From assembly GCA_024278555.1 (NCBI GenBank), contig JAJRSX010000203.1:1-54316 (forward strand): a stretch of DNA of 54,316 nt. Reading direction: 5' to 3'. Below the pieces are notes generated by a model. That model did not search any database. It saw only the letters and a program-made list of their open reading frames with translations, and was not told where the DNA came from. Below are positions 26,454-50,110 of this stretch, piece after piece (position 1 is the first letter of the stretch; each line of letters opens with the position of its first letter). The stretch is from a bacterium (lineage in GTDB: Bacteria > CG2-30-53-67 > CG2-30-70-394). A program made the position numbers and the translations under genes.

Positions 26454-26732
26454 AGAGGATCAGCGGAAACAAGATGGGGTTACCAGACCGTAGGGTCGGC
26501 TTCAGCCGACCGACGCCGTCATCTCAAGAAATGCCGATTGCTCCTAGCTCATGACCGACGATGGGCAATCGGAAAGAGGGCAAGATTCCGGGGGGAGGGG
26601 ATACCACCAACAGGGTCGAGGGAGTCACGAGGTGATCACGGTGCGAGCCTGGAGGGCGATTTCACCACAGAGACACAGAGGGCACGGAGAACTGCAAAGG
26701 AGAGGTGCGTTCCTCCTCTTGGGCCTCGCGAC
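26454..26732 (+). repeat. Left part of the MITE-like repeat copy (C) split by the prophage
   Basis: Starts with terminal repeat AGAGGATCAGCGGAAA (26454-26469). About 90% identical to the reverse complement of 14497-14777. Ends at ...gggcctcGCGAC, directly abutting the phage TG terminus. Confidence 0.85.
26728..26732. repeat. 5-bp target-site duplication, left copy (GCGAC)
   Basis: GCGAC immediately precedes phage terminus TGTAAGCGG... The same pentamer follows the other terminus at 50106-50110. The uninterrupted paralogue has gcaac once at this position. Confidence 0.8.
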
Positions 26733-26789
26733 TGTAAGCGGCCAAGAAGTTTGCGAAGTTTGGACGGAAAGTTTGCGACAGGGTGGGGA

Positions 26790-27782
26790 TCAGGGTCGGG
26801 CATCGGCGGCGAGGGTGGTGGTGTAGCCAGAGGAGGTGATTTTGTGGGTGGCGGTGCGGGTCGTCCAGGGGCCGTCGAGACCGTCGCGGAACCCTGTGAG
26901 ATTGAGCGGGGTCTCGGCGAGGATCGTGGGGTCGCCCGGCAAAGTCAGTTCCAGCTCGCCGGCGCCGCGGGTGAGCTGGTCCAGTTTGGACCGTGCGGCC
27001 GCGAGGGCCTGGGCTGCGTCAGGATAGAGGTGGGTGAGCCGGTAAATGGGCTCGCCTTTACCGGCGGTTTTAGAGCGAGTCAACGCCGCTTGAAGATCCC
27101 GCCACTGGGCGATGACCTGCCGGAACTTGCCGCGCTTGGTGAGGGTGCCACGCCATGAGGTGACGTCCGCGGGCCGCAGCGTCACCGGCGCGATGGTCTG
27201 CCCCGAGACACTCCCCGACCGCCCCCTAGGGGTGAAGATGAGGTGCCCACCCGCTGGTTTGGCGACTGCCCCATATTGGGTCCCGAGGCGGGTGAGCAGG
27301 TTCATGTCGGACTCGTCGACCTGGTCGAGATGGGGAATCGGCACGCCGTCGTAGTCGATCGCCACGGATGGCTGATATCCATGTTCGGCGGCGATGCTGC
27401 GCACCAGGTCGCCAAGGGTGGTTTGGTGCCAGGCGCGGGTCTTTTGGGTCTGGAGGGTGGTGAAGTGGAGCGAGGGGTCAAAGGCGGCGGCGCGGGCACG
27501 GATCGTGAGGGCGGCGGGCGGCCCCTCGATCTCCAGCTCGTCGACGACATAGATGCCCATCTGTTGGAGCTTACCCGCATATCCGATCGAGACCTCCAGC
27601 TCGGCCCCGGTACGGGGGAGCGCAATGCCGCCCCCGGTCTCGCGCCGGCGGTCGTCGATGCGGATGGTGAGCCGATCGTTTTGCCGCCCCGCCTCGTCCA
27701 CCACCGTCAGGGACAGCAGATGCGTGCGGATCACCTCGGTGATGACCTGGGCGTCGGCGACGATGCGGAAGGCGGGGGGCAT
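26790..27782 (-). CDS. Phage late control/tail protein D (P2 gpD-like)
   Basis: ATG at 27782 (MPPAFRIVADAQVITEVIRTHLLSLTVVDEAG...) in track ORF 26790..27965. The P2 gpD pattern is present and it is last in the tail operon, as in P2. Confidence 0.8.
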   Translation of the reverse strand: MPPAFRIVADAQVITEVIRTHLLSLTVVDEAGRQNDRLTIRIDDRRRETGGGIALPRTGAELEVSIGYAGKLQQMGIYVVDELEIEGPPAALTIRARAAAFDPSLHFTTLQTQKTRAWHQTTLGDLVRSIAAEHGYQPSVAIDYDGVPIPHLDQVDESDMNLLTRLGTQYGAVAKPAGGHLIFTPRGRSGSVSGQTIAPVTLRPADVTSWRGTLTKRGKFRQVIAQWRDLQAALTRSKTAGKGEPIYRLTHLYPDAAQALAAARSKLDQLTRGAGELELTLPGDPTILAETPLNLTGFRDGLDGPWTTRTATHKITSSGYTTTLAADARP

Positions 27783-27786
27783 GGCG

Positions 27787-27996
27787 TCAGTCCCACAGGT
27801 GTACCACGCAGGTGGTGTCCGCCGTGTCCGGTAGATCCGGCAGCTCGATGAGTAACCCCGCGGGTAGCTCCGGACCGAGCTCCGCGAGGTGGGGGTTGGA
27901 GTCGAGGACATCCACGATGGCCGACTCGTGTCCGTAGTGGCGCCAGCAGATGCGGTCGAGCACATCCCCCGCGAGGGTGCGGTAGTGGACGCTCAC
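27787..27996 (-). CDS. Phage tail protein X (P2 gpX-like)
   Basis: GTG at 27996 overlaps the gpU stop (GTGA). VSVHYRTLAGDVLDRICWRHYGHESAIVDVLDSNPHLAELGPELPAGLLIELPDL matches the gpX family. Confidence 0.75.
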   Translation of the reverse strand: MSVHYRTLAGDVLDRICWRHYGHESAIVDVLDSNPHLAELGPELPAGLLIELPDLPDTADTTCVVHLWD

Positions 27997-28400
27997 GCCC
28001 CGTCCTCCCCGTAGTAGGCGAGGGCGAGACGGAAGGCGACCTTGCGTGGCGCCCCACCGGGCAGGTGCGCGGATTGGGTCTCCTCGATGCGCTCGATGAC
28101 CCACCGGCCGAGCACCGTGCCCTTTCGCGCGTCGGCTGAGGCGACCAGCATCAGGGGGGCACCCTTCCCCGCCTCGGTGCGCATGGTATCGAGCTGACCG
28201 AGGCCACCTCGATAGTGGGGGTAAATGATGCCATCTAGCTCGACAGTCTGGTTACCAGGGCCAACGTATTGGCGGGCCGGCTCCCGTCCGATCCGGTCTT
28301 GGGCCGGCCACCGGTACTCGTTTACCCGGCGCAGCGTCTGGTAGGCGGCGGTGTCGACAGAGAAGCGGTAACCACCGAGGGCGAGCATCACCTCAGCCAT
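27993..28400 (-). CDS. Phage tail protein U (P2 gpU-like)
   Basis: 135-aa ORF. MLALGGYRFSVDTAAYQTLRRVNEYRWPAQDRIGREPARQYVGPGNQTVELDGIIYP is the typical gpU N-terminus. Confidence 0.8.
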   Translation of the reverse strand: MAEVMLALGGYRFSVDTAAYQTLRRVNEYRWPAQDRIGREPARQYVGPGNQTVELDGIIYPHYRGGLGQLDTMRTEAGKGAPLMLVASADARKGTVLGRWVIERIEETQSAHLPGGAPRKVAFRLALAYYGEDGA

Positions 28401-30762
28401 CGCCGAGCCCCTCGTGTTGGCGGGCCATCAGGCGGGCGACTTCCTCCGCCAAGGCGTGCACGTCCTGCCCGGGGCGTGCGGTGATGTGGAAGGTGTTGGT
28501 CTGGTGGTAGGTGATGGTGTGTCCCGCGGGGGCGGGCTCCGGAGGGCGGGGCGGCGCGGCAGAGGGCGACGCTCCGGCCGCGAGATCGGAGGGGACTTGC
28601 GCCACCGGCGTCGCCGGCCGTACCACGGGAGGGGGCACCGCCACCGGCGCCGCCGGCCGTACCCGTGGGGTGGCCGGCGGCGGCGGGACCGGCGCGGCCG
28701 GTGGGAGTGCAGCCTGACCGGGGAGTGGGGCCGTGGCGATGACGGCGCCGAGGGTGGCGGCGGCCGCGGTTTGCTGGAAACGGTGGGTCACGGTTTTGCC
28801 ACCACCGCCACCGAACCACTTCGCCACCGCCGCAAACGGCGCGGAGATCTTCTCCCACATGCCCCCGACCCAGCCGGCAAACTTCGCCCATACCGCCTTG
28901 ATCGGCTCCCAGATGCGCAACAGGAATCCCTTCACCTTGGACCAGTTGGCGATGATCAGCCCGGCCCCGAGGGCGATCACGGCGATCGCCGCGCCGATCG
29001 GGTTGGCGGCGATCGCCACTCCCAGCATACGCAGGCCGGCGACCACAGCCGGGATGGCGCCGCGCGCCAGCCCCAGCAAGGTCCCGCCGAAGGACTTGAG
29101 CCCGCCGCCGATGGCCAGGGCGCGGGTCCGCACCGCGGTGATCAAGGCCACCGCATTGAAGCCGCTCATCCGTTCGGTCGTCCAAGTAATCATCCGCCCT
29201 ACACCTGCCGCGGTGTTCCCGGCCATGGTCCACGCATCGGAGAACAGCGTCCCGACGTACTTGCTCACCATGGCGGCGGCGGTGAATCCGGCAAACCCCA
29301 GGGTCGCGCCTCCCAGCACCATGCCGAGGGCGGGGACCTTTGCCACGGCGATTCCCACCCACCGGGCGACCGCAGCGATGGGGGTGAGGACGGCGTTCAG
29401 GGCTGGCACCAAGGTGCCGGCGAGGAGGTTACCGACGATCTTCAGATTTTGGCCGAGCGTTCGGAGCCGGCCTCCGGTGGAGGCCAGAAAGTCCTGATAG
29501 GCGGTGTCCACCACGCCACGGGAGCCGTCGGCCACCGCCCGATAGCCCTCCGTCAACCCCGCCATATTGCCCAGCAGCAGGGCCACGGCGCTGCCCTCGT
29601 CGCCGAACGCCTTTTGCAGGGCGGCGGCACGAGCATCCACGTCGGTGCCATAGGCGGCGTCGAGGGCCTCTTTCAGATGGCCGAGGGTGCCCACCAGGTC
29701 CATCTCCCCGGCGGCGTTGCGCTCGATGGTGAAGCCGAACTGCTGCGACGCCCGACCCAACTGGCGCAGGACGGCGTTGAAGGCGGTGCCGGCGCGGCCG
29801 CCCATCAGACCGGCGGTGTTGAAGCTGCCCAAGGTGGCGGCGGTCTGTTCGAGCGAGACCTTGTACTTGATCGCCGCCGCCGCCCCCTCCTTGAACGACT
29901 CGCCGAGCTGGCCAAAGTCGCGAATCTGGAACTTGAATTGGGTCTTGGTGAGGACGTCGCCGATACGCGCCAGCTTGTCGGTGGCGGTGCCGGCGATCGC
30001 CGCCCCCAGGTTATTGAAGACCACCCCCACCACTTCGCCTACCTGGGCGGCCGAGCCCTGGGTGACGGTGGCCACCTTGTGGACAATCTCGGTGCCGAGG
30101 CGTGCGGTGGCTGCATCCAGGCCGGCGGAGTCCAGGGCGTACTCAATATTGAGCACCTCGACCTCCGAGGCGAGCGAATCGCGGGCGAAGTCGAGGGCGT
30201 GGCGGCGGGAGGCTTTTAGCGCCGCGGCGGTATCCTTGGCATTGATCACCGTGCGGAGACGCACCTGCGCATCCTGCACCTCGATGGCGCCGCCGAAGAT
30301 GCGGCTCGCCGCGTAGGCCGCCCCGAGGGTGCCGATCGCCTTGGCGTGCAGCTCGCTACGGACCTGGGCGTTGCGCTCGCGGGTCGCCACCCGCGCCAGC
30401 GATGCCTCGGCGCGGGTGGCGGAGCGCTCCAGCCGGCGATGCTGGCGCACCACGTCGCCAATGGAGACCCCGTAGGCCCGGGCCGCCTGCTTGGCGTCCC
30501 GGTAGCGACGCTCCACCTCCGCAATCCCCGCGTTCAGGCGGGAGGACGAGCGGCCGAGGGTGGCCTGTTTCGCCTTGAGCCCCTCCAGGGTTGACCTATA
30601 CTTGATGACGTCGGCGGCCAGGGTGGCGCCGAGGCGGTGGCGCTTGGCCGTCTCCCCGATCTTGACGATCCGCTGTTCGGTGGAGCGGAACGCCTTCCCC
30701 AGGGTCTCGGAGACCGCGCCGCCGATGACGATCGAGAGTGCGAGGGACTTACCGAAGGGCAT
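28393..30762 (-). CDS. Tail tape measure protein
   Basis: 789-aa ORF between the E/E' chaperone and gpU. Ala/Gly-rich helical protein with hydrophobic segments. The N-terminus KSLALSIVIGGAVSETLGKAF is typical of P2-type tape measures. Confidence 0.85.
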   Translation of the reverse strand: MPFGKSLALSIVIGGAVSETLGKAFRSTEQRIVKIGETAKRHRLGATLAADVIKYRSTLEGLKAKQATLGRSSSRLNAGIAEVERRYRDAKQAARAYGVSIGDVVRQHRRLERSATRAEASLARVATRERNAQVRSELHAKAIGTLGAAYAASRIFGGAIEVQDAQVRLRTVINAKDTAAALKASRRHALDFARDSLASEVEVLNIEYALDSAGLDAATARLGTEIVHKVATVTQGSAAQVGEVVGVVFNNLGAAIAGTATDKLARIGDVLTKTQFKFQIRDFGQLGESFKEGAAAAIKYKVSLEQTAATLGSFNTAGLMGGRAGTAFNAVLRQLGRASQQFGFTIERNAAGEMDLVGTLGHLKEALDAAYGTDVDARAAALQKAFGDEGSAVALLLGNMAGLTEGYRAVADGSRGVVDTAYQDFLASTGGRLRTLGQNLKIVGNLLAGTLVPALNAVLTPIAAVARWVGIAVAKVPALGMVLGGATLGFAGFTAAAMVSKYVGTLFSDAWTMAGNTAAGVGRMITWTTERMSGFNAVALITAVRTRALAIGGGLKSFGGTLLGLARGAIPAVVAGLRMLGVAIAANPIGAAIAVIALGAGLIIANWSKVKGFLLRIWEPIKAVWAKFAGWVGGMWEKISAPFAAVAKWFGGGGGKTVTHRFQQTAAAATLGAVIATAPLPGQAALPPAAPVPPPPATPRVRPAAPVAVPPPVVRPATPVAQVPSDLAAGASPSAAPPRPPEPAPAGHTITYHQTNTFHITARPGQDVHALAEEVARLMARQHEGLGDG

Positions 30763-30905
30763 GATGGCTCAGACGGCGATCGCGGTGGTGCTCGGCTCGT
30801 TGGCGGCCGTGTGGGTGGTGTTGCTCGACCCCGCCGTGGCCGACGGTCTCTCCCAGGTCCAAACATGTCTCGCCGGCCTGTTCCTCGGCGCGCTGTGTAC
30901 CCTCA

Positions 30906-31312
30906 TCATGCGACCGGTCGCCGGCCTTCTGGTTGCGCTCGGGGCAGGGCTGAGATCCATTGCATCAGCTCCTCGCCGGTGAGCTCCAGCAGCTCGGTCA
31001 GCCCCCACCCGGTGTGCTGAGCGAGGAGGATGCAGGCGCGTCGGGCGTCCTCGGCCCGGAGGACAAAAAAGAGGCGTACACCTTCTGGAGGCGCAGGTAG
31101 TCCACCAGGTCGAGGGCCTCGATCACCGCCGGCGCCACCTCCGCCAGGTTGGCGAACAGGGTGACCTCTTGCGCGGCCGACGATGCGGAACCCTTTTCGG
31201 CGGCGAGCATGTCCCGCACCTTGGGGCGACGCAGGGTGATGTGGTCGGTCGCCACCCCCTCCACCGTCACCGGGTAGGTCAGCTTCACGGTCGTGTCATC
31301 GATATTCCTCAC
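30906..31312 (-). CDS. Predicted -1 frameshift product E+E' (about 135 aa)
   Basis: Slippery T TTT TTG lies at 31064-31070 (gene strand), in codons S81-F82-L83. The -1 frame stays open for 52 further codons (VLRAEDARRACILLAQHTGWGLTELLELTGEELMQWISALPRAQPEGRRPVA) to the TGA at 30906-30908. P2 uses the same heptamer and position for E/E'. Confidence 0.65.
30998..31312 (-). CDS. Tail assembly chaperone (P2 gpE-like), zero-frame product
   Basis: 104-aa ORF directly upstream of the tape measure. ...TVKLTYPVTVEGVATDHITLRRPKVRDMLAAEK...LFANLAEVAPAVIEALDLVDYLRLQKVYASF is gpE-like. It contains the slippery heptamer T TTT TTG. Confidence 0.75.
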   Translation of the reverse strand: MRNIDDTTVKLTYPVTVEGVATDHITLRRPKVRDMLAAEKGSASSAAQEVTLFANLAEVAPAVIEALDLVDYLRLQKVYASFLSSGPRTPDAPASSSLSTPGGG

Positions 31313-31530
31313 GCGGTCGCCCCCTTCTTGGCCGGCGCCGCGCCCTTGGCCGGGGTGGTGGCGGGCTTCGCCGCCGTTACCGGCTCGATGAAGCCGCCGG
31401 CGCGGAGGTAGCGTGCCTGCCGGTCGGTCATCTCCACCACCTCCCCCGCCGCGAACGAGCGGTGGTCATGAATCAGGGGCGTGCAGACGGTGTATCGCCG
31501 GGTCGCCGGCGCTTTCTTGGGGGTGGCCAT
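31309..31530 (-). CDS. Small hypothetical phage protein with Ala/Pro/Lys-rich tail
   Basis: 73-aa ORF between the tube and gpE genes with 4-nt overlap onto the gpE start. No family recognised. Confidence 0.5.
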   Translation of the reverse strand: MATPKKAPATRRYTVCTPLIHDHRSFAAGEVVEMTDRQARYLRAGGFIEPVTAAKPATTPAKGAAPAKKGATA

Positions 31531-31581
31531 GGACTTGATCTCCAGAGGGGGGGGTGGGAGGTCGATGGGGTGAGCGGGGGC

Positions 31582-32085
31582 TCAGATGCCCAACGCGGCG
31601 CGGGTAGAGGCGAGGCGGTCGACGCCGTCGATCATGCGGACCATGTTCTCCACGTCGATCTCGTGGACCACGCGGCCGCCGTGGGTCAGCTTGTAGTAGC
31701 GCACCGCCACCGTCCCCTTCAGCTTCGCCAGGTCGCCCGCCTTCCACGTGCCGGGGTCCAGCTCGGTGAGGCTCCCGGAGAGGTTCACCACCACCGGGGT
31801 GACGGTGCCGTCCTCGCTCTCCACCGCGCCGCGGAAGGTGAGAGGCACGAGGTTCCCCGGCGCCAGGCCGAAGCGGGCGAGCACCTCGGCATCGAAGGCG
31901 GTGAGGGTGAAGGTCGCCTCCATTTCCTCCATCCCCATGTCGATCTTCACCGGGGCATCCATGCCGCCGGCGCGGTAGTCCTCGGTCTTCACCGTCAGCT
32001 TCGGGGGGGTCAGATCCTCCACCCGGCCGGCGTAGCCGTAGCCATCGACGGACAGGGTGAGGTTCTTCAACAGGTCGGTAATCAT
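31582..32085 (-). CDS. Major tail tube protein (P2 FII-like)
   Basis: 167-aa ORF. NLTLSVDGYGYAGRVEDLTPPKLTVKTEDYRAGGMDAPVKIDMGMEEMEATF closely mirrors the P2 FII N-terminus. Confidence 0.88.
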   Translation of the reverse strand: MITDLLKNLTLSVDGYGYAGRVEDLTPPKLTVKTEDYRAGGMDAPVKIDMGMEEMEATFTLTAFDAEVLARFGLAPGNLVPLTFRGAVESEDGTVTPVVVNLSGSLTELDPGTWKAGDLAKLKGTVAVRYYKLTHGGRVVHEIDVENMVRMIDGVDRLASTRAALGI

Positions 32086-32143
32086 GGTTACGGTCTCCTT
32101 GATGGCGGGTGGTCCCCGCCGGTACGGCTGGCGGTCACTCCCC

Positions 32144-33325
32144 TTACGCCGGGAGGATCTCCTCGATGTAGTCGTTCACCAGGTGCGACTGGAAGGTGAT
32201 GTGCTCGGCCGGGTACGGCGGGGTGAAATCGAAGTCGAAGTAGACCTGACCCGCCTGGATGGCGGCGGCGGTGTTCAGATCCGGGTCGGCGTAGGCGGTT
32301 CCCCCGAGGATGGCGCCCTGGGCCACCAGGTGGCGGAGGTAGCCGTTGACCCCCTCCAGCACGTCGGCGATGTAGGTCTTGGTGATGTTGCGATCCACAG
32401 CCCACAGATGCGCCCGCAGGAGCGACTCGTTGATCATGTCGGCGGTGCGCCGCACCGACAGGTACATCCACTTGGGATCGACGGCCGACGTGCCGCGGTT
32501 GCCCCAGAGGCGGAAGCCGTCCTTCTGGATGATCGTGGCAACGTCGTTCTCGTTGAGGACGTTGGCCCGCGCGGTGGCATCGCCGAGTGTGAAGTCGACC
32601 GGCCGGGTAGTGCCGGTGATACCGTAGATCGGGCGGTTCGAGGGGCTCCACCAGAAGCCACGCTCCGCGTCCGACTTGGCGATCACCCCGGCCACCCGCG
32701 CCGATGGCGGCTCGGTGACCTCGCTGCTGGTGGCGGTGTCCCACACCCGCACCCACGGATCCACCAGATAGACGCGGGGGTTGGCGATGACGGCCTTGTA
32801 GCCGATGCCCGCTATATCGTTGATGTTGAGCCCGTCGGCGATGATCACCGCCCGCAGCCGATCGGCGATCGACTGCATCTCGCCGACCACGGGCGCCGCG
32901 TTGGTGAAGCCCGGAGCGATGAGGATCTTGGGGGCGACCCCGAGCACGCTCTCGGCCGCCGCCAGGGCATGAACGCCGGTATAGGCGCCGATGGCGGCAT
33001 CAACCCCGCCGATCACGTTGGTCTGGGTGGCGGCGGCGTCCACCCCCTCGGCCACGCGGACCACCACCACCAGGGCGCCGGCCTGATCGAAGATACCGTC
33101 CAGGGCCGCCGGCAGGGTGCCGAGGCCGGTGCCCACGGTGTCGAGCTTTGCCGCCTCGACCCGCGAGCCGGCCACCAGGACCGGGGTATCCAGTGGAAAG
33201 GCGGTGGCATCGGCGTCCGGCGCGGTACCGACGATGCCGATGACCGATGAGCGGACGGTCTGGATCGGCCGGGGGCCGGCGTCGATCTCGAGGACTTCTA
33301 CGCCGTGGAGGAAAGAGGCGGGCAT
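32144..33325 (-). CDS. Contractile tail sheath protein (P2 FI-like)
   Basis: 393-aa ORF upstream of the tube gene. N-terminus SFLHGVEVLEIDAGPRPIQTVRSSVIGIVGTAP and C-terminal PPYPAEHITF are typical of sheath proteins. Confidence 0.88.
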   Translation of the reverse strand: MPASFLHGVEVLEIDAGPRPIQTVRSSVIGIVGTAPDADATAFPLDTPVLVAGSRVEAAKLDTVGTGLGTLPAALDGIFDQAGALVVVVRVAEGVDAAATQTNVIGGVDAAIGAYTGVHALAAAESVLGVAPKILIAPGFTNAAPVVGEMQSIADRLRAVIIADGLNINDIAGIGYKAVIANPRVYLVDPWVRVWDTATSSEVTEPPSARVAGVIAKSDAERGFWWSPSNRPIYGITGTTRPVDFTLGDATARANVLNENDVATIIQKDGFRLWGNRGTSAVDPKWMYLSVRRTADMINESLLRAHLWAVDRNITKTYIADVLEGVNGYLRHLVAQGAILGGTAYADPDLNTAAAIQAGQVYFDFDFTPPYPAEHITFQSHLVNDYIEEILPA

Positions 33326-33349
33326 GGGGTGGTCTCCTGAAGGTGCGGG

Positions 33350-34777: not shown

Positions 34778-34792
34778 GGGGTTGGGTTTTCG

Positions 34793-35404: not shown

Positions 35405-35407
35405 CGG

Positions 35408-36292: not shown

Positions 36293-36331
36293 GGGGGGGT
36301 TATCTCGGCAGGCAGGGGCGATCCATCGGAG

Positions 36332-40498: not shown

Positions 40499-40520
40499 GG
40501 GGGGCGCGCTATCGCTCGCG

Positions 40521-40548: not shown

Positions 40549-40555
40549 GGGGTGG

Positions 40556-40807: not shown

Positions 40808-40821
40808 GGCCCCCTCCTACC
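40798..40821 (-). repeat. Host-type REP unit inside the prophage
   Basis: tcgggggcatggccccctcctacc is the exact reverse complement of GGTAGGAGGGGGCCATGCCCCCGA found at 19367 and 19492. It lies 4 nt downstream of the capsid stop codon. Confidence 0.85.
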
Positions 40822-40824
40822 GGG

Positions 40825-41703: not shown

Positions 41704-41718
41704 GGCTGGGGTCCGTCC

Positions 41719-41937: not shown

Positions 41938-41948
41938 CACGGCGGTCC

Positions 41949-42344
41949 TTAGCCGATGCGGACCCAGACGCCTTCCGCGTCCACGTCGACGATGGTGCCG
42001 ACCGCCGAGGAGCCGGCGGAGGCCTCGGTGACCGACTGGTCGTCGACGATGTAGGCGGGGTCGCCGATGTTGGCGCGGGTGATGGCGCCGCCGTTGGCTA
42101 AGGGGAAGACCCCCTTGCGCACCGCCACGGAGATGTCCCCGTCGGCGCCGCCGCTGTTGTCGGCCGCCTCCTGGGCGACCCCGCGGCTGATCAGCCCGGC
42201 GGCGGCGGTGGCCGGGGCGGCGTTGCCGGCGGCATCGAGCACCACCAGGGCGCCGGCGTGGAAGACGGCCCCGGCGGCAACGGGATCGACGAAGTCGTCC
42301 CCGATACGCTCGGGGGTTGCACGGTCTTCGGTAAGAGCGGCCAT
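41949..42344 (-). CDS. DUF2190-type head decoration/cement-like protein
   Basis: 131-aa ORF between the protease/scaffold and capsid genes. Beta-rich, with ...GALVVLDAAGNAAPA...GVAQEAADNSGGADGDISVAVRKGVF, as in the DUF2190 family. Confidence 0.55.
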   Translation of the reverse strand: MAALTEDRATPERIGDDFVDPVAAGAVFHAGALVVLDAAGNAAPATAAAGLISRGVAQEAADNSGGADGDISVAVRKGVFPLANGGAITRANIGDPAYIVDDQSVTEASAGSSAVGTIVDVDAEGVWVRIG

Positions 42345-42383
42345 CAGAAATCCTCTTTTTGGGTGGGGGTGGGAGGGCGGGGG

Positions 42384-43421
42384 TTAAGCGGCGGCGAGGC
42401 CCGCCTTGTAGGTCTTGGAATCGAGCCCCATGGCGCGGCAGATGGCGGTCTGCTGGGCGTTCAGGCCATCGGCCCCCTCCCCCGTATCGGGGTCGGCGCC
42501 GCCGCTCTGGGAGCTCCGGAGCGCCGCGATGGGCTGGGCGGATTCGACGTAGCTGGTGAGCGCGGCGAGGTTGGTGGTGCCCAGCTCCCGTGCCCACCCC
42601 TCTTGGGCCGGCAGCAGGCGGCCGTCGGCCAACGCCGCGGCGACCAGGGTGTCGACCTCGCGGCCGGTGGACTCGGCGCGCAGGGCGGCGATCTCGGTGC
42701 GCAGCTCCTCCACGACCGTCACCGGCGCGTACTTCGCCGGGTCCGGGGTGGCGGTGGCCGCCTTGGCGGCGGCGACCGCGGCCTGGGCCGTGTCGATCTG
42801 GGTCCGCAGGGCGGCGATGGCCGCCACCGCGTCGTCGATGCCGGCGCCCTCGGTCAGGTCGAGGGCTTCCTTCAGTGCCTTGTCCACATCGTTCTCCAAA
42901 GGGGGTTGGGGGTCGTGCAGGGTTCGGCGGGCGGCGGCGCGCGCCACCACCTCGCTCATGCCGTCGATCGCCGGGGCGTTGGTGAGGCCGGCGTTGAGCA
43001 CGTCGAGGACCTCGCCGGACTCGGGCAGGTAGGAGAAGACCGCCGAGATGTAGCGGTACTCGGCCGCGTCGATGGCTGCGGTGGCCTTCGGCGTCCACTG
43101 CACGCCGGTGGCGAACAGCCCCTCGCCGTCGCGCCACTGAAGGCCGCTGAACCATCCGGCCGCCGGCGCCGGCTGGCCGTTCCATTCGGTGTTCAGGGTC
43201 TGGTGCTCATAGTCGATCACCCGCCGGTTGACCCGGCGAGCGCCGCGTTTGATCACCAAGGCGGCGATCTCGGCATCGAGCCGCCACGCCGCCGCGTCCC
43301 GCGGCCGGCCGTCCTCGGCCCGGAACTCCCCCGCGGGCAAGAGCTGCACCTCCGTCACCGGAGTGGCCCCCACCTCGAATGCACATGCCACCATGCCGAT
43401 GGCTTGCGACCGCGTTGTCAT
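42384..43421 (-). CDS. Head maturation protease/scaffold (Mu gpI-like)
   Basis: 345-aa ORF. VQLLPAGEFRAEDGRP...WRLDAEIAALVI....RRVIDYEHQT...AAGWF..LQWR.GEGLFA..VQWT..A...I...EYRYISAVF matches the Mu-like_Pro pattern, followed by an Ala-rich scaffold-like C-terminus. Confidence 0.8.
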   Translation of the reverse strand: MTTRSQAIGMVACAFEVGATPVTEVQLLPAGEFRAEDGRPRDAAAWRLDAEIAALVIKRGARRVNRRVIDYEHQTLNTEWNGQPAPAAGWFSGLQWRDGEGLFATGVQWTPKATAAIDAAEYRYISAVFSYLPESGEVLDVLNAGLTNAPAIDGMSEVVARAAARRTLHDPQPPLENDVDKALKEALDLTEGAGIDDAVAAIAALRTQIDTAQAAVAAAKAATATPDPAKYAPVTVVEELRTEIAALRAESTGREVDTLVAAALADGRLLPAQEGWARELGTTNLAALTSYVESAQPIAALRSSQSGGADPDTGEGADGLNAQQTAICRAMGLDSKTYKAGLAAA

Positions 43422-43758
43422 GCCGCCACCGTAGGGAGGTGGAGGCAGGCGGTGGGATTCAAGAAGTTGGGTTTATCGAGGGGGCAAGGGCGTTCTTTTT
43501 CCAGCCCGATCATGGGGGCGGACCGCATCGCCATACCTCTGTTAGTGCCCCCACACGCCCCCTCACCCACCTCGCGGACCCCAACCGCCCCCAATCCGTC
43601 CGACCCCCAGCACGGAACATGCCCTCAGACTTGGTTGAATCCTTTAACCCGGACCGGAACACCCCTCCCTATACCCAACCCTACCCTCGCCCCCTCCGGT
43701 CGATTCTAGGGCCTTACAGTGCGTCGGCCCTCTCCCCCCGTCGCGGGGAGGAGGGGGA

Positions 43759-44289
43759 TCACTTTTCCAGGGCGCGGGCGAGGTGGTCGGCGAGGATGGC
43801 GAGGATCTCCTCGCGGTCGGGCGCCGACGCCCCGAGGAAGGGGCGGGCCGGGACCGTCGAACCGGGGTGGCGGACCGAGGCCACCGGGTGGCGCCCGCCG
43901 GGCCAGGCCAGCGCCTTGGCCCGCTTCGGGCGGATGGTGTGGGCGGCCGTCAGGCCGCCGAGCTGGTGGATGGCGCCGTACAGCACGTTGGTGCCCACCT
44001 CCACCGCGCCGGCGGTGGCGAGCCAGGTGATGGAGTCGCGCAGGCGGCCGGACTCGGTGAGGGTCTTGGGGTTCTTCTTCACCGCCTTGCGCGCCGCGCT
44101 CACCGGCTTCCACTTCTGCTCATCGGGGCCGCGCTGGTCGCGGAAGCGCCCCTCGGTGGACCGCCGCAGGTGCTCGCCGATGTCCTGGTAGGCGGGGGTG
44201 AGGTCGTGGGCGGCGAGGGAGAGGCGCTTGAGGGCGTCGCGGATCGCCCGTTCTTGGTGGGCGTCGAGGCTGATGGTGAGGGTGGCCAT
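43759..44289 (-). CDS. Virion morphogenesis protein (Mu gpG-like)
   Basis: 176-aa ORF. ...AYQDIGEHLRRSTEGRFRDQRGPDEQKWKPVSAARKAVKKNPKTLTESGRLRDSITW...VEVGTNVLYGAIHQLGG is the gpG family pattern. Confidence 0.8.
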   Translation of the reverse strand: MATLTISLDAHQERAIRDALKRLSLAAHDLTPAYQDIGEHLRRSTEGRFRDQRGPDEQKWKPVSAARKAVKKNPKTLTESGRLRDSITWLATAGAVEVGTNVLYGAIHQLGGLTAAHTIRPKRAKALAWPGGRHPVASVRHPGSTVPARPFLGASAPDREEILAILADHLARALEK

Positions 44290-44384
44290 TTGCTAGAGTC
44301 CGTTCACGGTGTCGAGGTGAGGGCCGTGCCCCACCGACCCTCGGCATTTGCCCACCCTTGCCGCGGGGGGTGAGGCCCCATTTC

Positions 44385-45629
44385 CTACTCTCTTCCATAG
44401 AGGAGTAGTCCGCGCCGGGCATTTTGGGCGGTATTGAGCTTGGAGGTGGGGATCCACGTCCACGCCTCCAGGAGTCCACGGGTGGCCTGGGCGACGAGCA
44501 GCATCCCTCGGGTCTTGTCGAGATCAAGCAACTTGATGAAGCGCTGGCGGAGCACCACCTTGCCGGTGCCCTTGTGGCGCTCGAAGGTCTGCCACACCTC
44601 GTAGGGGTCGGTGAGGGTCTCTTCCAGGAAGGGGAGGTAGGGGGTGCGGTCCAGCGGCAGGTGGGCGGCGAGGGTCTCGGCGTTGACCAGGGTGGTGTAA
44701 CTCCACCCCTTCGCCTCAAGGGTGAAGGTTCGCTCCTCGCCGCCGAGCTGCTCGCGCAGGCGGGCCGCCGTCTCCGTCTGGGTGGCGGCGGGCCGGATCG
44801 CCTTGGCCTTGGGCTTGTCCAGGGGGATGCGCTCGGGCCGGTGGTGGCTCTGCCGGCTCCCGGGGGTGAGCGGCTCCCAGGCGGCGGCGCCCTGGTGCTG
44901 CCACGCACCCATGGCACGCTCGGAGAGCGGCCGCCCCCAGGCCGCCTCGCCGACGTTGTAGGCCCAGCCGGGGTCGATGCCGTTGGGGATGGTGTGGGTC
45001 CGGCCGGTCTGCCGGTCCTTCCAGCGATAGGTGCCGTCGTCCGGGGCGGTGTCGGGTCCCTGCTTGCCGCTGTTCTTGAGCTGGCGCTCGGAGCGGGCGA
45101 AGGTTCGGCATCGGCACCCCCAGCCGTTCGGGGTCCCGTGGGTCTTCCACCACGGGTCGTCCGCCTTCAGCACCAGGCCGTCCCAGGCGAGGTGCAGCGG
45201 CCGGGGGCGGACCGAGTCGCCGTGGCGGTATTCCCAGTAGGGGTTGCGCTCCAAAAAGGCCGGGTCGGTCATCTGCCGGTAGCGGCCGGCCGCATACGCG
45301 GTGCGCAGGTTGGTCTCGTAGATGGTGCGGGTGCGCCAGGCGCGACCCTTCTTGGAACCCTCCCCGGTCCAGCCGGTCCAGCCCCGGCGGGCGACGGTGG
45401 CCTCGAAGTCGTCGCGGAACTGTTCCAGGGTGGTGCCGTCCGCGATCGCCCCGTCCACCGCCTGGCGGAGGTCGGCCAGGAGATCCTCCTGCATGGCGCC
45501 GGCGACCACGAAGGCGCGGGCGTGCATCCCCTCCCAGAGGTCGGTCCACCGCTCGGTAGGGAGATCGACCTTCTGGCGGAAGAAGGTGATGGCCTCGGGG
45601 AAGGGGAGAGCGCGGTGGTCTACGGCCAT
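44385..45629 (-). CDS. Head morphogenesis protein (Mu gpF / SPP1 gp7 family)
   Basis: 414-aa ORF. ...FFRQKVDLPTERWTDLWEGMHARAFVVAGA...RTRTIYETNLRTAYAAGRYRQM...YWEYRHGDSVRPRPLHLAWDG...NGWGCRCR. Confidence 0.85.
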   Translation of the reverse strand: MAVDHRALPFPEAITFFRQKVDLPTERWTDLWEGMHARAFVVAGAMQEDLLADLRQAVDGAIADGTTLEQFRDDFEATVARRGWTGWTGEGSKKGRAWRTRTIYETNLRTAYAAGRYRQMTDPAFLERNPYWEYRHGDSVRPRPLHLAWDGLVLKADDPWWKTHGTPNGWGCRCRTFARSERQLKNSGKQGPDTAPDDGTYRWKDRQTGRTHTIPNGIDPGWAYNVGEAAWGRPLSERAMGAWQHQGAAAWEPLTPGSRQSHHRPERIPLDKPKAKAIRPAATQTETAARLREQLGGEERTFTLEAKGWSYTTLVNAETLAAHLPLDRTPYLPFLEETLTDPYEVWQTFERHKGTGKVVLRQRFIKLLDLDKTRGMLLVAQATRGLLEAWTWIPTSKLNTAQNARRGLLLYGRE

Positions 45630-45928
45630 GGGCTCGCCGTGTTGGTGGCAGGGGGCGGATCCGCCCCCTCATCCAGGCCCTCTCCCACGAGGGGAGAGGG
45701 CGCTTCTTCCCGGAGCGCCGCCGCGAGCAGCCCGGCATAGACGGCGGCCTTCTCGGCGTCGCGCGCCGCTGCCGCGCCGCCCTCCTTGTAGTTGAGCCGG
45801 CAGAGGTATTTGAGGTTGTTGCCCAGGAGGAAGCCGCGGTACTGCTCGTCGGTGAGCTTGGCGCGCAGGATGTCGAGGGTCTCGATACCGCCGGCGTCGT
45901 AGTAGGCGGCGTTGGGGTCGTGGCTCAT
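45620..45928 (-). CDS. DUF3310-family small phage protein
   Basis: 102-aa ORF overlapping both the portal stop (ATGA) and the gpF start. YYDAGGIETLDILRAKLTDEQYRGFLLGNNLKYLCRLNYKEG...DAEKAAVY is the DUF3310 signature. Confidence 0.65.
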   Translation of the reverse strand: MSHDPNAAYYDAGGIETLDILRAKLTDEQYRGFLLGNNLKYLCRLNYKEGGAAAARDAEKAAVYAGLLAAALREEAPSPLVGEGLDEGADPPPATNTASPWP

Positions 45929-47538
45929 CGGCCCTCCCCCACCTCGAAACGGCCCGCGAGGTCGGCGGCGGTGAAGGCTTGTTGCAAGGTGGCGGCGAGG
46001 TCGGAGACCCCCATCTCCGGGTAGAGGGCGAGCAGCCCGTCGCGGAGCTCGTCCATCGACCGGGCGGTGGCGACCAGGCGGCGGACCGGGGCGAGGAGCC
46101 CATCCATGGCGCTCGCGGCCGCCTCGTCCAATTGGTCGGCGTAGTGGTCGGCGGTGTCGGGGTCGGGATCCCCGGCCCGGAGGGCGGCGCAGTGGGGGCA
46201 GGCTCCCCGGAGGGCCGGATTCATCCGGCCCACGGCGTCCGGCGGGTGGAAACCCGCCCTACGGAGCGCGGCCTGGCCGAACGGCAGTGCCGGCCGCAGC
46301 ACCTCCTCGTCCTCCTGGGGCCTCGGGATGCGGAGCTTGTCGTGGGCGTAGTCGAGGGGGATCTCCATCCCCACCTCCACCAGCTTGGGAATGGCGTCGG
46401 CGTAGAGCTTGAGGTCCTCGGGCTCGCGGGTGTCGAAGCGGAAACGGGGGCCGCGGCCGGGATCGAGGCCGGGCAGGTTAAGGGTGGCCAGGGGCCACAC
46501 CAGGTCGCGGGTGAGGGTGGAGGCGAGTTGCAGGGCGTCGGCCACCAGGAGGTCGTGGCGCACCTCGTTGTGGACGGTACCCAGGGCGTTGGTGCTGGTC
46601 TTGCCGTCGGCCTGGCTGGTGAGCGTGCCGCCGAGGATGGCCTTCGACTGGGTGCGCTCACACCAGTCGATCATCGCCTGGAAGGGGTCGGAGCGGTCGG
46701 CCGCCGCCTCCTTGAAGTCGACCATCATCCCCTCGGGGATGATGCCGGCGGCGTTGTGGCCGAGGTTGACCACGGCGCGGAGCAGGGTGGCCTTTTCCTT
46801 GTCCGAGCTGCCCGGCGGGTAGGTCCCCAGCCGCAGGGGCAGGCCGTAGATCTCCAGGAACTCGGCCAGGTCGCGGACGCTGTAGTTCTTGAACAGGTAG
46901 GGCCAGGCGAGCACCCGGTGGAGGCCGGCGCGGCCCAGGTAGCCACTTTTCGCCTTGTGGATGTGGGTGATCCAGGAGAACGGCCGCAGCGCCTCGGTCT
47001 CCTGGCCCTTCCTGCGCAGGAGCAGCCGGTCGTGGTTTTCCTTGGCGACGGTGAACCAGCGCGGCGGCCGGTGGGTGATGTCCGACGGCACCCACTCGTT
47101 ACCGTCACGACCCCAGGTGATCTCCAGGCAGGAGAACCCCTTGCCGATGGCGTCGGCCATGTCCAGGAGGGTGTCTTCGAAGTTGGACAGGTCGCGGAGC
47201 ACGTCCCCCACCCACTCGGCCGCCGTCTCCTCGGTGGCGGTGGCGCCCCTGGGGGCCACCACCTCCCAGTCCAGCCCGAGGAGTGCCCGGCGGCGTTTGG
47301 ACAGCTCGGCGTAGATGTGGCCGTCCCTCTCCTCCATGTCGTCGAAGAGGTCGCATTGGGCGGTGAGGTCGCCGCGCTCGGCGTCGGTGAGGATGGAGGC
47401 GAGCTTGGCGGGGGTCAGCCCGCGGGCCGGGTGGTCGGCGAACTCCTTGTGGAGGTGGCCGAGCTTCGCGGTCTGGGCGGCTTGCAGGTCGCCGCTCTTC
47501 ACGGGGTGGCCGCGGTGGTCGAGGATCGTTGCCATCAT
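45925..47538 (-). CDS. Portal protein (Mu gp29 / DUF935)
   Basis: ATGATG at 47533-47538 preceded by AGGAGAA, inside track ORF 45925..48018. MMATILDHRG...DHPARGLTPAKLASILTDAERGDLTAQCDLFDDMEERDGHIYAELSKRR. The 160 upstream codons are Pro/Arg-rich junk. Confidence 0.88.
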   Translation of the reverse strand: MMATILDHRGHPVKSGDLQAAQTAKLGHLHKEFADHPARGLTPAKLASILTDAERGDLTAQCDLFDDMEERDGHIYAELSKRRRALLGLDWEVVAPRGATATEETAAEWVGDVLRDLSNFEDTLLDMADAIGKGFSCLEITWGRDGNEWVPSDITHRPPRWFTVAKENHDRLLLRRKGQETEALRPFSWITHIHKAKSGYLGRAGLHRVLAWPYLFKNYSVRDLAEFLEIYGLPLRLGTYPPGSSDKEKATLLRAVVNLGHNAAGIIPEGMMVDFKEAAADRSDPFQAMIDWCERTQSKAILGGTLTSQADGKTSTNALGTVHNEVRHDLLVADALQLASTLTRDLVWPLATLNLPGLDPGRGPRFRFDTREPEDLKLYADAIPKLVEVGMEIPLDYAHDKLRIPRPQEDEEVLRPALPFGQAALRRAGFHPPDAVGRMNPALRGACPHCAALRAGDPDPDTADHYADQLDEAAASAMDGLLAPVRRLVATARSMDELRDGLLALYPEMGVSDLAATLQQAFTAADLAGRFEVGEGR

Positions 47539-47762
47539 TTCTCCTGGGCGGTGTCCCCGGTGACGACGTGACCCCGGAAGAGGAGCGGCGGGCACCAGTG
47601 GAAACAGGGGTCCACCGGCACAAACGAGCGCAGCTCGCCGGAGGGCGCGAGCCACAGGAAGTGGGGGAACCAGCCGTAGTGGGAGCGCCGCACCACCAGG
47701 TAGCCGCCGAGGCGGAACCAGCGGGAGAGCGCCCAGAGCAGGCAGTTGGAGCGGGTCACCAT
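47535..47762 (-). CDS. Small hypothetical protein coupled to the portal gene
   Basis: 75-aa ORF (MVTRSNCLLWALSRWFRLGGYLVVRRSHYGWFPHFLW...) with 4-nt overlap onto the portal start. It sits where a large terminase gene would normally lie but has no terminase features. Confidence 0.5.
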   Translation of the reverse strand: MVTRSNCLLWALSRWFRLGGYLVVRRSHYGWFPHFLWLAPSGELRSFVPVDPCFHWCPPLLFRGHVVTGDTAQEK

Positions 47763-47899
47763 GCGCCGACCTCCTGGGGCAGGAGATCGTCGACGTCGTC
47801 GTCAACGTCGGCCGAGCGGTCCCAGATGGAACCCTTGTCCGGGGCGGCGGTGTACTCGATGGGGGCGGGCCGCATCTCGGAGACGGCGTACTCGGCCAT
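47756..47899 (-). CDS. Possible 47-aa acidic ORF, first gene of the structural operon
   Basis: ATG at 47897-47899. MAEYAVSEMRPAPIEYTAAPDKGSIWDRSADVDDDVDDLLPQEVGAW. The stop overlaps the next ATG (ATGGTGA). No SD and no family recognised. Confidence 0.3.
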   Translation of the reverse strand: MAEYAVSEMRPAPIEYTAAPDKGSIWDRSADVDDDVDDLLPQEVGAW

Positions 47900-47980
47900 G
47901 GCCAGGGCGACCAACGCCGCGCCGTGCTCGCCCGGCTCACCGAGCGTGGCGCCCGCTTCGCCCCCAAGGACGCCCCGCAG

Positions 47981-48187
47981 ATGGTCGCGAGCGACGAGCG
48001 GTGGCCGATGATGCACAAGGTCGAAGCGCTGCTGGCCGAGGCCCACCGGCCGTGGGCCTACGCCCACGCCGTGGCGAAGCACATGTTCAACCGCCCCCGG
48101 GTCGACCACCTCACCCCGCGCGACCTCCACAAGCTCATCGCCGCCCTCATGGCCGACGCCCGCCGCCACGGCCGGAGGGTGCAATGA
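47981..48187 (+). CDS. GemA/Mu gp16 (DUF1018)-like protein, C-terminal half only (probably truncated)
   Basis: ATG at 47981 (AAGGA upstream) in track ORF 47924..48187. KVEALLAEAHRPWAYAHAVAKHMFNRPRVDHLTPRDLHKLIAALMADARRHG resembles only the last roughly 55 residues of the gp16 family as I recall it. The family N-terminal half is missing. Confidence 0.45.
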   Translation: MVASDERWPMMHKVEALLAEAHRPWAYAHAVAKHMFNRPRVDHLTPRDLHKLIAALMADARRHGRRVQ

Positions 48188-48684
48188 GCGGCCCGACCCA
48201 GGCGCAGGAGGTCCCCATCGAGGCGTCCGTGATCCCGCCCGTCGTGCCGGTGGAGATCACCGGCTGGGACGCCGCCGGCCCGCCCCCCACCACCTGTCCG
48301 CGCTGCCACACCTCCGGCCTCCTGCGCTGGGAGCGCCTCGACGACATCGGCCCCTACGCCCTCGCCGCCCGCTGCCTGTGCGGCCACCTCTCCTACCACC
48401 AAGCGGTCGTTCGGGTCGTCCGCCGATCGCCGGACGAAGAGCGAGCCATCGCCAGAAACCGGCGTCTCATCCCCATCGAGCGCTGCGACCTCTGCGGCAC
48501 CGACCGGGCCCGGATCCACGGCCTCTGTGCCCGCTGCGCCTCCCGCGAGCTCAAGCGCGGCACCAAGGACGCCGCCTACACCCCGTGGTACCAGCTCCCC
48601 GCAGCAGACCGCACCGAGACCGAGCGCGCCGCCCGCCTGATCCTCGGTACTCGAAATCACCGGCACCCCGAACCCCGAGGCTAA
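48184..48684 (+). CDS. Cys-rich zinc-ribbon protein, unknown function
   Basis: ATG at 48184 overlaps the previous stop (ATGA). 166 aa with CPRCH...CLCGH and CDLCG...CARC pairs. Confidence 0.55.
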   Translation: MSGPTQAQEVPIEASVIPPVVPVEITGWDAAGPPPTTCPRCHTSGLLRWERLDDIGPYALAARCLCGHLSYHQAVVRVVRRSPDEERAIARNRRLIPIERCDLCGTDRARIHGLCARCASRELKRGTKDAAYTPWYQLPAADRTETERAARLILGTRNHRHPEPRG

Positions 48685-48689
48685 CCCCC

Positions 48690-49124
48690 ATGGCCGAACA
48701 ACCTGACCTCCCCCTGGGCGCCATGGAATGCGACGTCGACGCCCTGCTCGCCCGCCTCGACGACCTCGACGCGGTGGCGCCGGCCGATGCGTGGCCGCAG
48801 ACCCTGGCGGACCTCTTCGACATCCTCACCGACCACTACACCCGCCGCCGCGATCACCCCGAGGCGGACGCCCGGCGCGAGGCCGAGGAGATCGTCATCC
48901 TCCTCGCCCACTGGCTCGGCGGCCGTCCGGTGTATCTGCCCCGCGACGACTCCCTCCGCCGCGCCCTGCGCGACGCGGACATCTACCGCGACTTCGGCCG
49001 GCGCTCCGCCGCCGAGCTCGCCCAGGCCCACCGCCTCACCCCCATGCAGATCTATCACATCATCCAGCGCCAACGGCGGCTCCATCAGGGACGAGTGCAG
49101 CGGGAGCTGTTTCCTGAGGAGTAG
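48690..49124 (+). CDS. Mor/C-family transcriptional activator (Mu middle/late regulator type)
   Basis: 144-aa ORF. ...ILLAHWLGGRPVYLPRDDSLRRALRDADIYRDFGRRSAAELAQAHRLTPMQIYHIIQRQR is the Mor-family core with a C-terminal HTH. Confidence 0.75.
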   Translation: MAEQPDLPLGAMECDVDALLARLDDLDAVAPADAWPQTLADLFDILTDHYTRRRDHPEADARREAEEIVILLAHWLGGRPVYLPRDDSLRRALRDADIYRDFGRRSAAELAQAHRLTPMQIYHIIQRQRRLHQGRVQRELFPEE

Positions 49125-49132
49125 CCGTAGCC

Positions 49133-49381
49133 ATGGCCCTCAACCTCTGGCTGGATAAGCTCCGCAAACAAATGCAGGCCGCCCACGACCGGGCGGAGGC
49201 GCGATACTACTACTTTCCGGACCTGAAGGATCGCGCCGCCCTCGGCAAGTGGCTGAAGAAGTCCGCGGCCCAGCACGAGCGCGAATCGCAAAGGCATCTC
49301 GATCGACTGTCTGAACTAAGAAGAGACATCTCTGACCTCGATTCCCTGATCTACTGGGAACGGCAGAGTAAGCGTCGGTGA
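49133..49381 (+). CDS. Small charged coiled-coil protein, unknown function
   Basis: 82-aa ORF with lower GC than its surroundings. Last ORF before the phage terminus. Confidence 0.45.
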   Translation: MALNLWLDKLRKQMQAAHDRAEARYYYFPDLKDRAALGKWLKKSAAQHERESQRHLDRLSELRRDISDLDSLIYWERQSKRR

Positions 49382-49688
49382 CGCTCCCTCCCCCGTGCCG
49401 GGGTCGGCGCCGCCGCTTTGGGGCGCTCGAAACCCGCATGGAGTCCCGGCTCCCAGCCGTGTCCATCGACAGCAGAACAGACCTGACATGTTGCAAATCT
49501 CGACGCACGCTACACATACCGAACCATTGCAGTCCTCCCCAAAATAGAAGGCCGCACGTCTACGTTGCGCCATGATTGAGCCGGAGGCGAGGCGGCCCCG
49601 TCGGAGAAGGAGGAGATTTGCTCCCTTGCCGCCACCGGCCATAGTGCTCGTGCCCTGGCTGAGCTGTACGGGTGTCATGCAACTGTAG

Positions 49689-49797
49689 CAGCGTACTTTT
49701 CTCCATTGGGGTTGTCGGCCTTTCGCCGCCGGTGCAGTTGCCGTTAAATCAGTGGGTTAGCGAGAAAAGTACGCTCCACCTAGAAAAGTACGCTGCC
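49689..49797. promoter_or_regulatory. Three copies of a 13-nt box AGAAAAGTACGCT (one inverted, two direct): candidate operator or transposase-binding sites
   Basis: AGCGTACTTTTCT at about 49690-49702. AGAAAAGTACGCT at about 49763-49775 and 49782-49794. They lie 310-415 bp from the phage terminus in a 725-bp ORF-poor, lower-GC segment. Confidence 0.4.
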
Positions 49798-50105
49798 GTA
49801 CCATTCGCCCGCCCAAAATCAGCCCCCTCCGAGTCCCCCCTCAATCCATGTGACAGCTAGTTTTTTTCTGTTTGCATAAGGGTTTGAACGCCGGTCACGG
49901 GCAATCTTGCAATAATATGCAAAGCCCCTCCGAAGCCCCTCCGAAGCCCATACCCCCCCAAATCACCGCTGCGTTCGTTGCGACACTCCCCCACGCCCCC
50001 GTCGAGCTCCCCACCCCCTAACCCCTTGCCCCTCAACACCTTTCCCACCAAATCCCACCATCCCCCACCCCATCCCGCCCTTCGCATCCATCCTGACCCC
50101 CCACA

Positions 50106-50110
50106 GCGAC
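50106..50110. repeat. 5-bp target-site duplication, right copy (GCGAC)
   Basis: Follows phage terminus ...ccccccaCA. Identical to 26728-26732. Confidence 0.8.

Follow-up and report, generated by a model that had tools for sequence, protein, structure and literature searches.

A 23-kb defective Mu-like prophage delimited to the base by an uninterrupted copy of its target repeat in a Nitrospirota-like bacterium

The complete metagenomic contig JAJRSX010000203.1 (54,316 bp, hereafter the window) carries, between the atpB and atpD genes of a V/A-type ATPase operon, an insert of 23,373 bp (26733–50105), which begins with 5′-TG and ends with CA-3′, as was read directly at both junctions. Probably this insert is what was left of a temperate transposable phage that combined a Mu-type head, a contractile tail of P2 type and a gene layout of BcepMu/B3 type, and that suffered a single internal deletion after its insertion. 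Judged by its gene content, the element is a deletion derivative, i.e. a defective prophage and not an autonomous phage: it is devoid of transposase, MuB, immunity, lysis and terminase genes, and its gemA is truncated. Boundaries, target duplication, end architecture, gene content and the truncation of gemA are all matters of direct observation (coordinates are collected in Table 1).

The exact position of the insert was derived from its flanks. The left flank (26454–26732) and the right flank (50111–50200) were joined with a single GCGAC and aligned against the reverse complement of 14300–14850, where an uninterrupted copy of the same host repeat is located. The alignment gave one ungapped block of 369 bp (reverse complement of 14409–14777) with 352 identical positions (95.4%), which crosses the proposed junction without any break. 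GCGAC is the sole sequence found on both sides of the rejoined flanks, and the paralogue reads GCAAC at this position; the chance of a flanking 5-bp identity is about 2e-3. The initial annotation, made from the sequence alone, had proposed that the flanks restore one continuous repeat copy, that only GCGAC is doubled and that the inserted DNA has TG and CA at its termini. All three statements were borne out, with the junction exactly where it had been placed, and we agree that the boundary call is strong and that its strength rests on the uninterrupted paralogue. The alignment had been expected to continue up to position 50289. It is contiguous over the junction, but the match stops at approximately 50200–50208; the final ~80 bp of the split copy, among them its second terminal inverted repeat, have no counterpart in the paralogue. 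Phage Mu is known to make 5-bp target duplications; for BcepMu-type phages the length of the duplication was not found in the literature searched.

Being read inward, the two ends are TGTAAGCGGCCAAGAAGTTTGCGAAG on the tail side and TGTGGGGGGTCAGGATGGATGCGAAG on the side of the mor gene. They are identical in 18 of 26 positions and both contain TGCGAAG at nucleotides 20–26, exactly as had been noticed before. With the register fixed independently by the paralogue, the binomial probability of such identity is 2.5e-5 for the base composition of the window, and the empirical value for random 26-mers taken from the window is 7.8e-5. The tail-side terminus is a non-coding segment of 57 bp extending up to the stop codon of the gpD gene. 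It carries core pentamers GCGAA (26753–26757, nt 21–25) and GCGAC (26775–26779, nt 43–47), and the additional boxes reported for this side were also found: AAGTTTGCGA is present twice at a distance of 22 bp, with a partial GTTTGG between the two copies (11 bp). On the Mor side the core GCGAA occupies 50081–50085 (nt 21–25), and a second core in the same orientation, ACGAA, is located at 49974–49978 (nt 128–132). In the Mu genome (NC_000929) attR contains GCGAA at nt 21–25 and again at nt 43–47, and attL has ACGAA at nt 21–25 with a same-orientation inner core at nt 126. Thus, at the level of sequence, the RCGA(A/C) cores of the window match both the register and the left/right asymmetry of Mu attR (R1, R2) and attL (L1). 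Terminal cores at both ends plus a second one at nt 43–47 are expected in only ~5e-7 of random pairs with the composition of the window; since the pattern was defined after looking at the ends, this value is an upper bound on significance. The Mu attR sequence given in the initial annotation is an exact match to the right end of NC_000929, and the similarity of the tail terminus to R1 was retained in its structural part (core register), but there is no plain sequence match. As a whole, the pattern fits inverted and repeated putative transposase-binding sites, with two boxes on the tail side and a single one on the Mor side. TG...CA termini are characteristic of BcepMu-related prophages (PMC2628397). 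The tip of the Mor-side end, TGTGGGG, is also the left-end tip of two MuA-encoding relatives, one of which (L011) begins with this heptamer, and another (L015) has it at nt 57. The first 70 nt of L015 have the arrangement ...CTCCCACA-GTTTT(T)-TGTGGGGAGG, in which an apparent right end is followed, after a short spacer, by an apparent left end, head to tail; such a junction could come from a circular or tandem form, or from a transposable-phage assembly that wrapped around on itself.

With the duplication, the termini, the inverted repeats and the subterminal boxes all present, the proposal that the insertion is a product of Mu-type transposition is supported by the sequence. The narrower designation, “MuA-type”, fits the end signatures, but the insert encodes neither transposase nor MuB, and therefore the type was deduced from the ends and not from the enzyme.

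Gene families were assigned with PHROGs and Pfam and by tblastn with BcepMu and JBD25 proteins. According to codon-position GC (guanine plus cytosine) content, the minus strand between 47540 and 26790 is filled with genes almost without gaps. Portal_Mu, MuF, gpG, protease I/scaffold and gpT are all present in the order of a Mu-type virion module. The proteins align with their JBD25 homologues over residues 3–520 of 524 (portal), 1–296 of 298 (major head protein), 9–366 of 369 (protease) and 1–367 of 412 (MuF), and sheath and tube proteins span nearly the full length of their profiles. Such nearly complete coverage of profiles or homologues by the main proteins gives the late operon an intact appearance. 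A long open reading frame (ORF) of 697 codons (45925–48018), considered as a transposase candidate, was rejected, as it is an over-extended frame of the portal gene. Between the gpG-like and protease genes there is a non-coding gap of 337 bp (43422–43758). In phage Mu a strong gyrase site is annotated at the same position, between G and I, and JBD25 has a gap of 211 bp at the corresponding place.

Mu-type regulators are represented by an intact Mor, which is 40% identical to Mu C, and by a C-terminal fragment of GemA, both reading towards the 50105 end; gene 1 of BcepMu has the same outward direction as mor here. Homology to GemA begins at ~47909, which corresponds to position 25 of 119 in the Pfam profile and to position 49 of 186 in PHROG 286, even if the frame is extended upstream. 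About 720 bp between the last ORF and the end of the insert (49382–50105) have no coding signal. This non-coding DNA of lower GC content contains three copies of AGAAAAGTACGCT(GC) at 49688–49702, 49763–49775 and 49782–49794, two of which are direct repeats 19 bp apart and the third is inverted; they may be considered as candidate protein-binding sites, operator- or enhancer-like. A scan for sigma-70 promoters over 47400–50300 found none. Two translationally coupled orphan ORFs (47535–47899) lie upstream of the portal gene, in the position occupied by TerL in relatives. They matched no family in PHROGs or Pfam and had no homologue among 5.8e9 proteins.

Family scans, including all sizeable ORFs near the 50105 end, detected no transposase, MuB, repressor, Ner, lysis protein, TerS or TerL. 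Used as tblastn queries, 81 proteins of BcepMu and JBD25, and likewise 63 proteins of four closer relatives at E values up to 5, matched only the stretch from portal to gpD, Mor and the piece of GemA, and none from the interval between tnpA and terL matched the window. Neither TnpA/TnpB of BcepMu and JBD25 nor MuA/MuB of three relatives (L011, L012 and L015) matched the insert at the same threshold. The protein matches form an unbroken series between gpD and the portal, with a jump from the latter to Mor.

This jump is best understood from the gene order of BcepMu (Bcepmuvirus; NC_005882) and JBD25 (Pseudomonas B3 group; NC_027992). In both genomes the left end is followed by outward-reading Mor and GemA, further early genes, tnpB, tnpA and the immunity region, and the opposite direction is used by lysis genes, TerS, TerL, portal, other head genes and tail genes. 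The reverse strand of the window reproduces this order minus one interval, from the middle of gemA to just before the portal, so that the gemA fragment and mor on the plus strand diverge from the minus-strand late operon. The missing interval corresponds to ~1.0–15.8 kb in BcepMu coordinates (most of gemA through TerL) and to ~1.4–18.2 kb in those of JBD25; from its size the ancestor can be estimated at ~38–40 kb. The N-terminal truncation of gemA beside the portal operon fits one internal deletion of ~15 kb, and the BcepMu/B3 layout with a single deletion appears to be the most economical reading, with which the closest head genes agree (those of JBD25, 53–59% identity for portal and major head protein). 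A classical Mu layout modified by an inversion and deletions was also considered and rejected. There is no decayed repressor, ner or MuA near the 50105 end and no TerL remnant; remnants of repressor, ner, MuA, MuB, TerS and TerL were sought with proteins of the four closer relatives at E values up to 5, and none were found. No inverted repeats flanking the segment with gemA and mor were found, and in the inversion model position 50105 would be no true transposon end, yet it has the duplication and the matching terminal sequence. The layout would also be challenged if the best gpD and the best Mor matches, whose contigs have the identical length of 14,642, came from one contig; they belong to two unrelated contigs.

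Proceeding from these data one can suggest the following history, in which it is deduced how transposition proceeded chemically, which enzyme was lost and that insertion preceded deletion. The phage would have entered the chromosome through DDE transposition: its transposase presumably bound the boxes near either terminus, cleaved the DNA at the terminal CA-3′ and joined the ends to target phosphates with a 5-bp stagger, in the hairpin loop of the host repeat that separates atpB from atpD, and subsequent gap repair would have produced the GCGAC duplication. Later a single deletion of ~15 kb, from the middle of gemA to genes just upstream of the portal, may have taken away the remaining early operon, transposase and MuB genes included, together with the immunity region, the lysis cassette and both terminase genes (TerS, TerL). 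The two ends would then remain, along with Mor and a late operon that appears intact from portal to tail. Judging from the genes retained, such a remnant cannot by itself transpose, replicate, package DNA or lyse the cell.

Some observations weigh against this history and have to be set beside it. The insert contains no transposase gene, an enzyme of MuA type is not distinguished from the rve type of Tn552/BcepMu, and the link from ends to enzyme is indirect. The four nearest Mor relatives (42–47% identity) have the classical Mu order with gemA and mor co-directional with late genes, and the single-deletion model therefore draws on BcepMu and JBD25, whose genomes are more distant, and on the head-gene similarity to JBD25. 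Since the orphan ORFs at 47535–47899 match nothing, the breakpoint on the side of the late genes has no exact position. The internal junction is known only from the assembly of one metagenomic contig, the window, and no full-length sibling or second copy was found in any collection searched.

Among other explanations, a different order of events survives best: the element might have been already deleted when it inserted, being a natural “mini-Mu”, non-autonomous but with functional ends, which a full-length sibling phage in the same cell mobilised, and possibly also packaged, in trans. Both ends with their boxes are intact, the duplication is perfect, the late genes all look undecayed, which suggests a young element, and it is established that laboratory mini-Mu with ends alone transposes if MuA and MuB are supplied. 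However, neither a second copy nor a helper phage is present in the 54-kb contig or in any collection searched, and a single copy is equally well explained by insertion followed by deletion, for which no helper is needed; we consider this scenario unlikely. Less credit still is given to the idea that the junction near 47,900 was created by the assembler, which skipped ~15 kb of a complete prophage. It is favoured by the fact that the window is an entire metagenomic contig and that a contig of a related genome breaks exactly at atpD, so the neighbourhood is hard to assemble. But no repeat that might confuse an assembler is present at the junction, which has well-formed coupled ORFs on one side and a GemA fragment in frame on the other, and the omission of 15 kb of unique sequence is an unusual error, which altogether makes an artefact quite improbable.

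The presence of ~30 late genes and the late activator in an intact state, with early, lysis and packaging-enzyme genes all gone, might alternatively mean that Mor and the head-tail operon are a domesticated particle cluster (similar to gene transfer agents or tailocins) kept by selection after the loss of selfish functions. However, without terminase there is no packaging of DNA and without lysis genes no release, the gemA fragment looks accidental and not designed, no relatives of the same architecture were found, and the element interrupts a host operon. Domestication is thus very improbable. Taken together, a present-day function of the element, either as a non-autonomous “mini-Mu” moved and expressed in trans by a helper phage, or as a source of phage-like particles retained by the host, has in our estimation a small chance. 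An insertion made by another system, such as a Tn7-like or Tn552-like transposon that carries phage genes, or a site-specific integrase whose core is 5 bp long, is hardly credible: Tn7, too, makes 5-bp duplications and has TGT ends with repeated 22-bp sites, and the Mor-side tip TGTGGGG resembles its ends, but scans of ORFs for TnsA/TnsB/TnsC and for integrase or recombinase families found none in the insert, the genes carried form a coherent virion module of Mu type together with Mor and GemA, and the box cores and their register match Mu.

The preferred explanation, a remnant of a transposable phage deleted after insertion, places the element among several known systems. For gpD the best relative among 5.8 billion proteins has 50% identity, for Mor the best relative has 48%, and no relatives above ~50–59% protein identity were found in the collections searched. 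For neither the major head protein nor gpD was an exact copy found in public assemblies; IMG/VR scans returned gpD relatives of only 43–45% identity and nothing for Mor, and megablast against GenBank phages covered no more than 3% of the insert. BcepMu shares with the window the layout with outward Mor and GemA, the Mu-type head, the contractile P2-type tail, TG...CA termini and a box repeated at ~22-bp spacing at each end, and its left and right ends are identical in 18 of 27 positions. It differs in protein sequence (27–44% identity by tblastn), in the end box (GCGCGATATTTC in BcepMu, AAGTTTGCGAA in the window), in the acyltransferase moron, which the window lacks, and in the order of tail genes (V W J I H, sheath, tube, T U D in the window; sheath ... 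D, V W J I H in BcepMu). JBD25 has the closest head module (portal 53%, major head protein 59%, gp37 52%, protease 43%, MuF 37%) and also Mor at the left end, but it is a siphovirus with a flexible tail, and its genome of 39.6 kb is complete, with rve transposase and TerL that are both absent from the window. With Mu the element has in common TG...CA ends, the 5-bp duplication and the portal, F, G, I and T genes of Mu type. In Mu, however, the early operon including gemA and mor is directed inward from attL, in the direction of late genes, whereas the gemA fragment and mor of the window read outward, and MuA, MuB, c, ner, the invertible G segment, gin and mom of Mu are missing. Laboratory mini-Mu elements and truncated Mu-like prophages, which are immobile unless complemented, likewise keep both ends and have lost internal genes including transposase. 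Unlike laboratory mini-Mu, the element of the window is of natural origin and keeps the whole virion-structure operon with the late activator instead of a marker gene. Truncated transposable prophages have been reported in surveys (PMC6776037).

The host assignment as Nitrospirota-like is suggested by AtpD, whose matches in two Nitrospirota metagenome-assembled genomes have 82% and 65% identity. The location of the insert in the atpB-atpD spacer was confirmed, and the search for an unoccupied spacer in related genomes was successful for the more distant of the two (AtpD 65%), where it is 94 bp long and contains neither repeat nor phage. The contig of the closest genome (L006, AtpD 82%) starts 5 nt upstream of atpD, so that in this genome, as well, the assembly is broken in the spacer, possibly by a repeat or an insertion. 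In the window the spacer without the phage would measure 708 bp, ~440 bp of which are the repeat. Since a short spacer, the repeat and the phage are nested one in another, the sequence of events should have been short spacer, repeat, phage and then internal deletion. The late operon of the phage points in the same direction as the atp operon. A distance of 24 kb now separates atpB from atpD, the last gene of the ATPase operon, which lies downstream of the phage genes and is probably expressed either by read-through or from a promoter in what remains of the spacer.

The target of the phage is the loop of a ~30-bp stem in this intergenic host repeat within the ATPase operon and not a tRNA/att site. 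The repeat itself resembles a miniature inverted-repeat transposable element: it is ~440 bp long, has terminal inverted repeats of 16–19 bp (CTSAGAGGATCAGCGGAAA) and occurs in at least three copies in 31 kb of host DNA, one of which adjoins tRNA-Pro and tRNA-Arg (14896–15086). The third, degenerate copy is located at ~12877–13092. An exact 24-mer spanning the insertion site had no match in the metagenome collection. The hairpin arm of ~35–40 nt, with the core CCACAGAGACMCAGAGGGCAC, gave more than 120 exact matches in metagenome contigs from many environments with GC content of 38–72%. Among the matches listed, the arms usually form inverted pairs ~48 nt apart, giving a ~30-bp stem, and the arm alone is common but not the remainder of the 440-bp repeat; in one case among them (L055) at least five tandem copies are present with a period of 57 bp. 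The hairpin belongs to no Rfam family, its sequence was not found in the searchable literature, and wide conservation of one hairpin across metagenomes is unexplained.

Table 1. Features of the insert and its surroundings (window coordinates)
Feature	Coordinates	Strand	Remarks
Target-site duplication GCGAC, copy 1	26728–26732		from rejoined flanks
Target-site duplication GCGAC, copy 2	50106–50110		rejoined flanks compared with paralogue
Uninterrupted host-repeat paralogue (empty-site control)	14395–14777	−	
Tail-side (attR-like) terminus	26733–26789	+	begins 5′-TGT; two AAGTTTGCGA boxes; same register as Mu R1/R2
Mor-side (attL-like) terminus	49974–50105	−	inward TGTGGGGGGTCAGGATGGATGCGAAG; same register as Mu L1
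Putative deletion scar	47900–47923		minus-strand late ORFs adjoin truncated plus-strand gemA
gemA′, C-terminal fragment of GemA-family gene	47909–48187	+	reads toward 50105 end
Cys-rich ORF, 166 aa	48184–48684	+	codon-phase GC; weak double zinc-ribbon hint only (E = 0.037)
Mor/C-family late transcription activator, 144 aa, intact	48690–49124	+	Pfam Mor 6.5e-21; reads toward 50105
ORF, 82 aa	49133–49381	+	codon-phase GC; no function assigned
Orphan ORF, 75 aa	47535–47762	−	strong codon-phase GC
Orphan ORF, 47 aa	47759–47899	−	strong codon-phase GC
Mu-type head and connector module, further genes included	37547–47540	−	PHROGs, Pfam, tblastn
Portal	45925–47540	−	Portal_Mu, 5.9e-112; start ATG at 47540, ribosome-binding site AGGAGA
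DUF3310	45620–45928	−	
MuF	44385–45629	−	
gpG-like	43759–44289	−	
Protease/scaffold (gpI-type)	42384–43421	−	
Structural protein	41949–42344	−	
Major head gpT	40825–41703	−	
Adaptor	38095–38595	−	
P2-order contractile tail module	26790–37691	−	PHROGs; tblastn with BcepMu proteins
V	36876–37691	−	
W-like	36332–36667	−	
J	35408–36292	−	
I	34793–35404	−	
Fibre	33350–34777	−	
Sheath	32144–33325	−	
Tube	31582–32085	−	
E-like	30998–31312	−	
Tape measure	28393–30762	−	
U	27993–28400	−	
D (gpD)	26790–27782	−	called product 330 aa
Left half of host repeat (target)	26454–26732	+	terminal inverted repeat AGAGGATCAGCGGAAA; hairpin arm 26660–26696
Right half of host repeat	50111–50289	+	hairpin arm 50167–50203; terminal inverted repeat TTTCCGCTGATCCTCT at 50274–50289
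Hairpin arms	26660–26696 / 50167–50203; 14409–14442 / 14535–14583		also metagenome loci L016–L135
Host atpD (V/A-type ATPase subunit D)	25797–26402	−	Pfam ATP-synt_D
Host atpB (V/A-type ATPase subunit B)	50489–51890	−	start approximate
Host atpA	51895–53775	−	

Duplications of 5 bp, TG/CA ends and internal deletions in prophages are well established biology, and the element, divergent as it is, opens no long-standing question. In annotation this 23-kb region should be labelled as a defective Mu-like prophage without transposase and terminase, and atpD should be flagged as split from its operon. The element extends Mu-type transposable phages, with Mu-like architecture of their ends, to a Nitrospirota-like host, and no report of such a case was found in the searchable literature. 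It also provides a clean example of how a paralogous empty site allows a transposable prophage to be delimited to the base from sequence alone.

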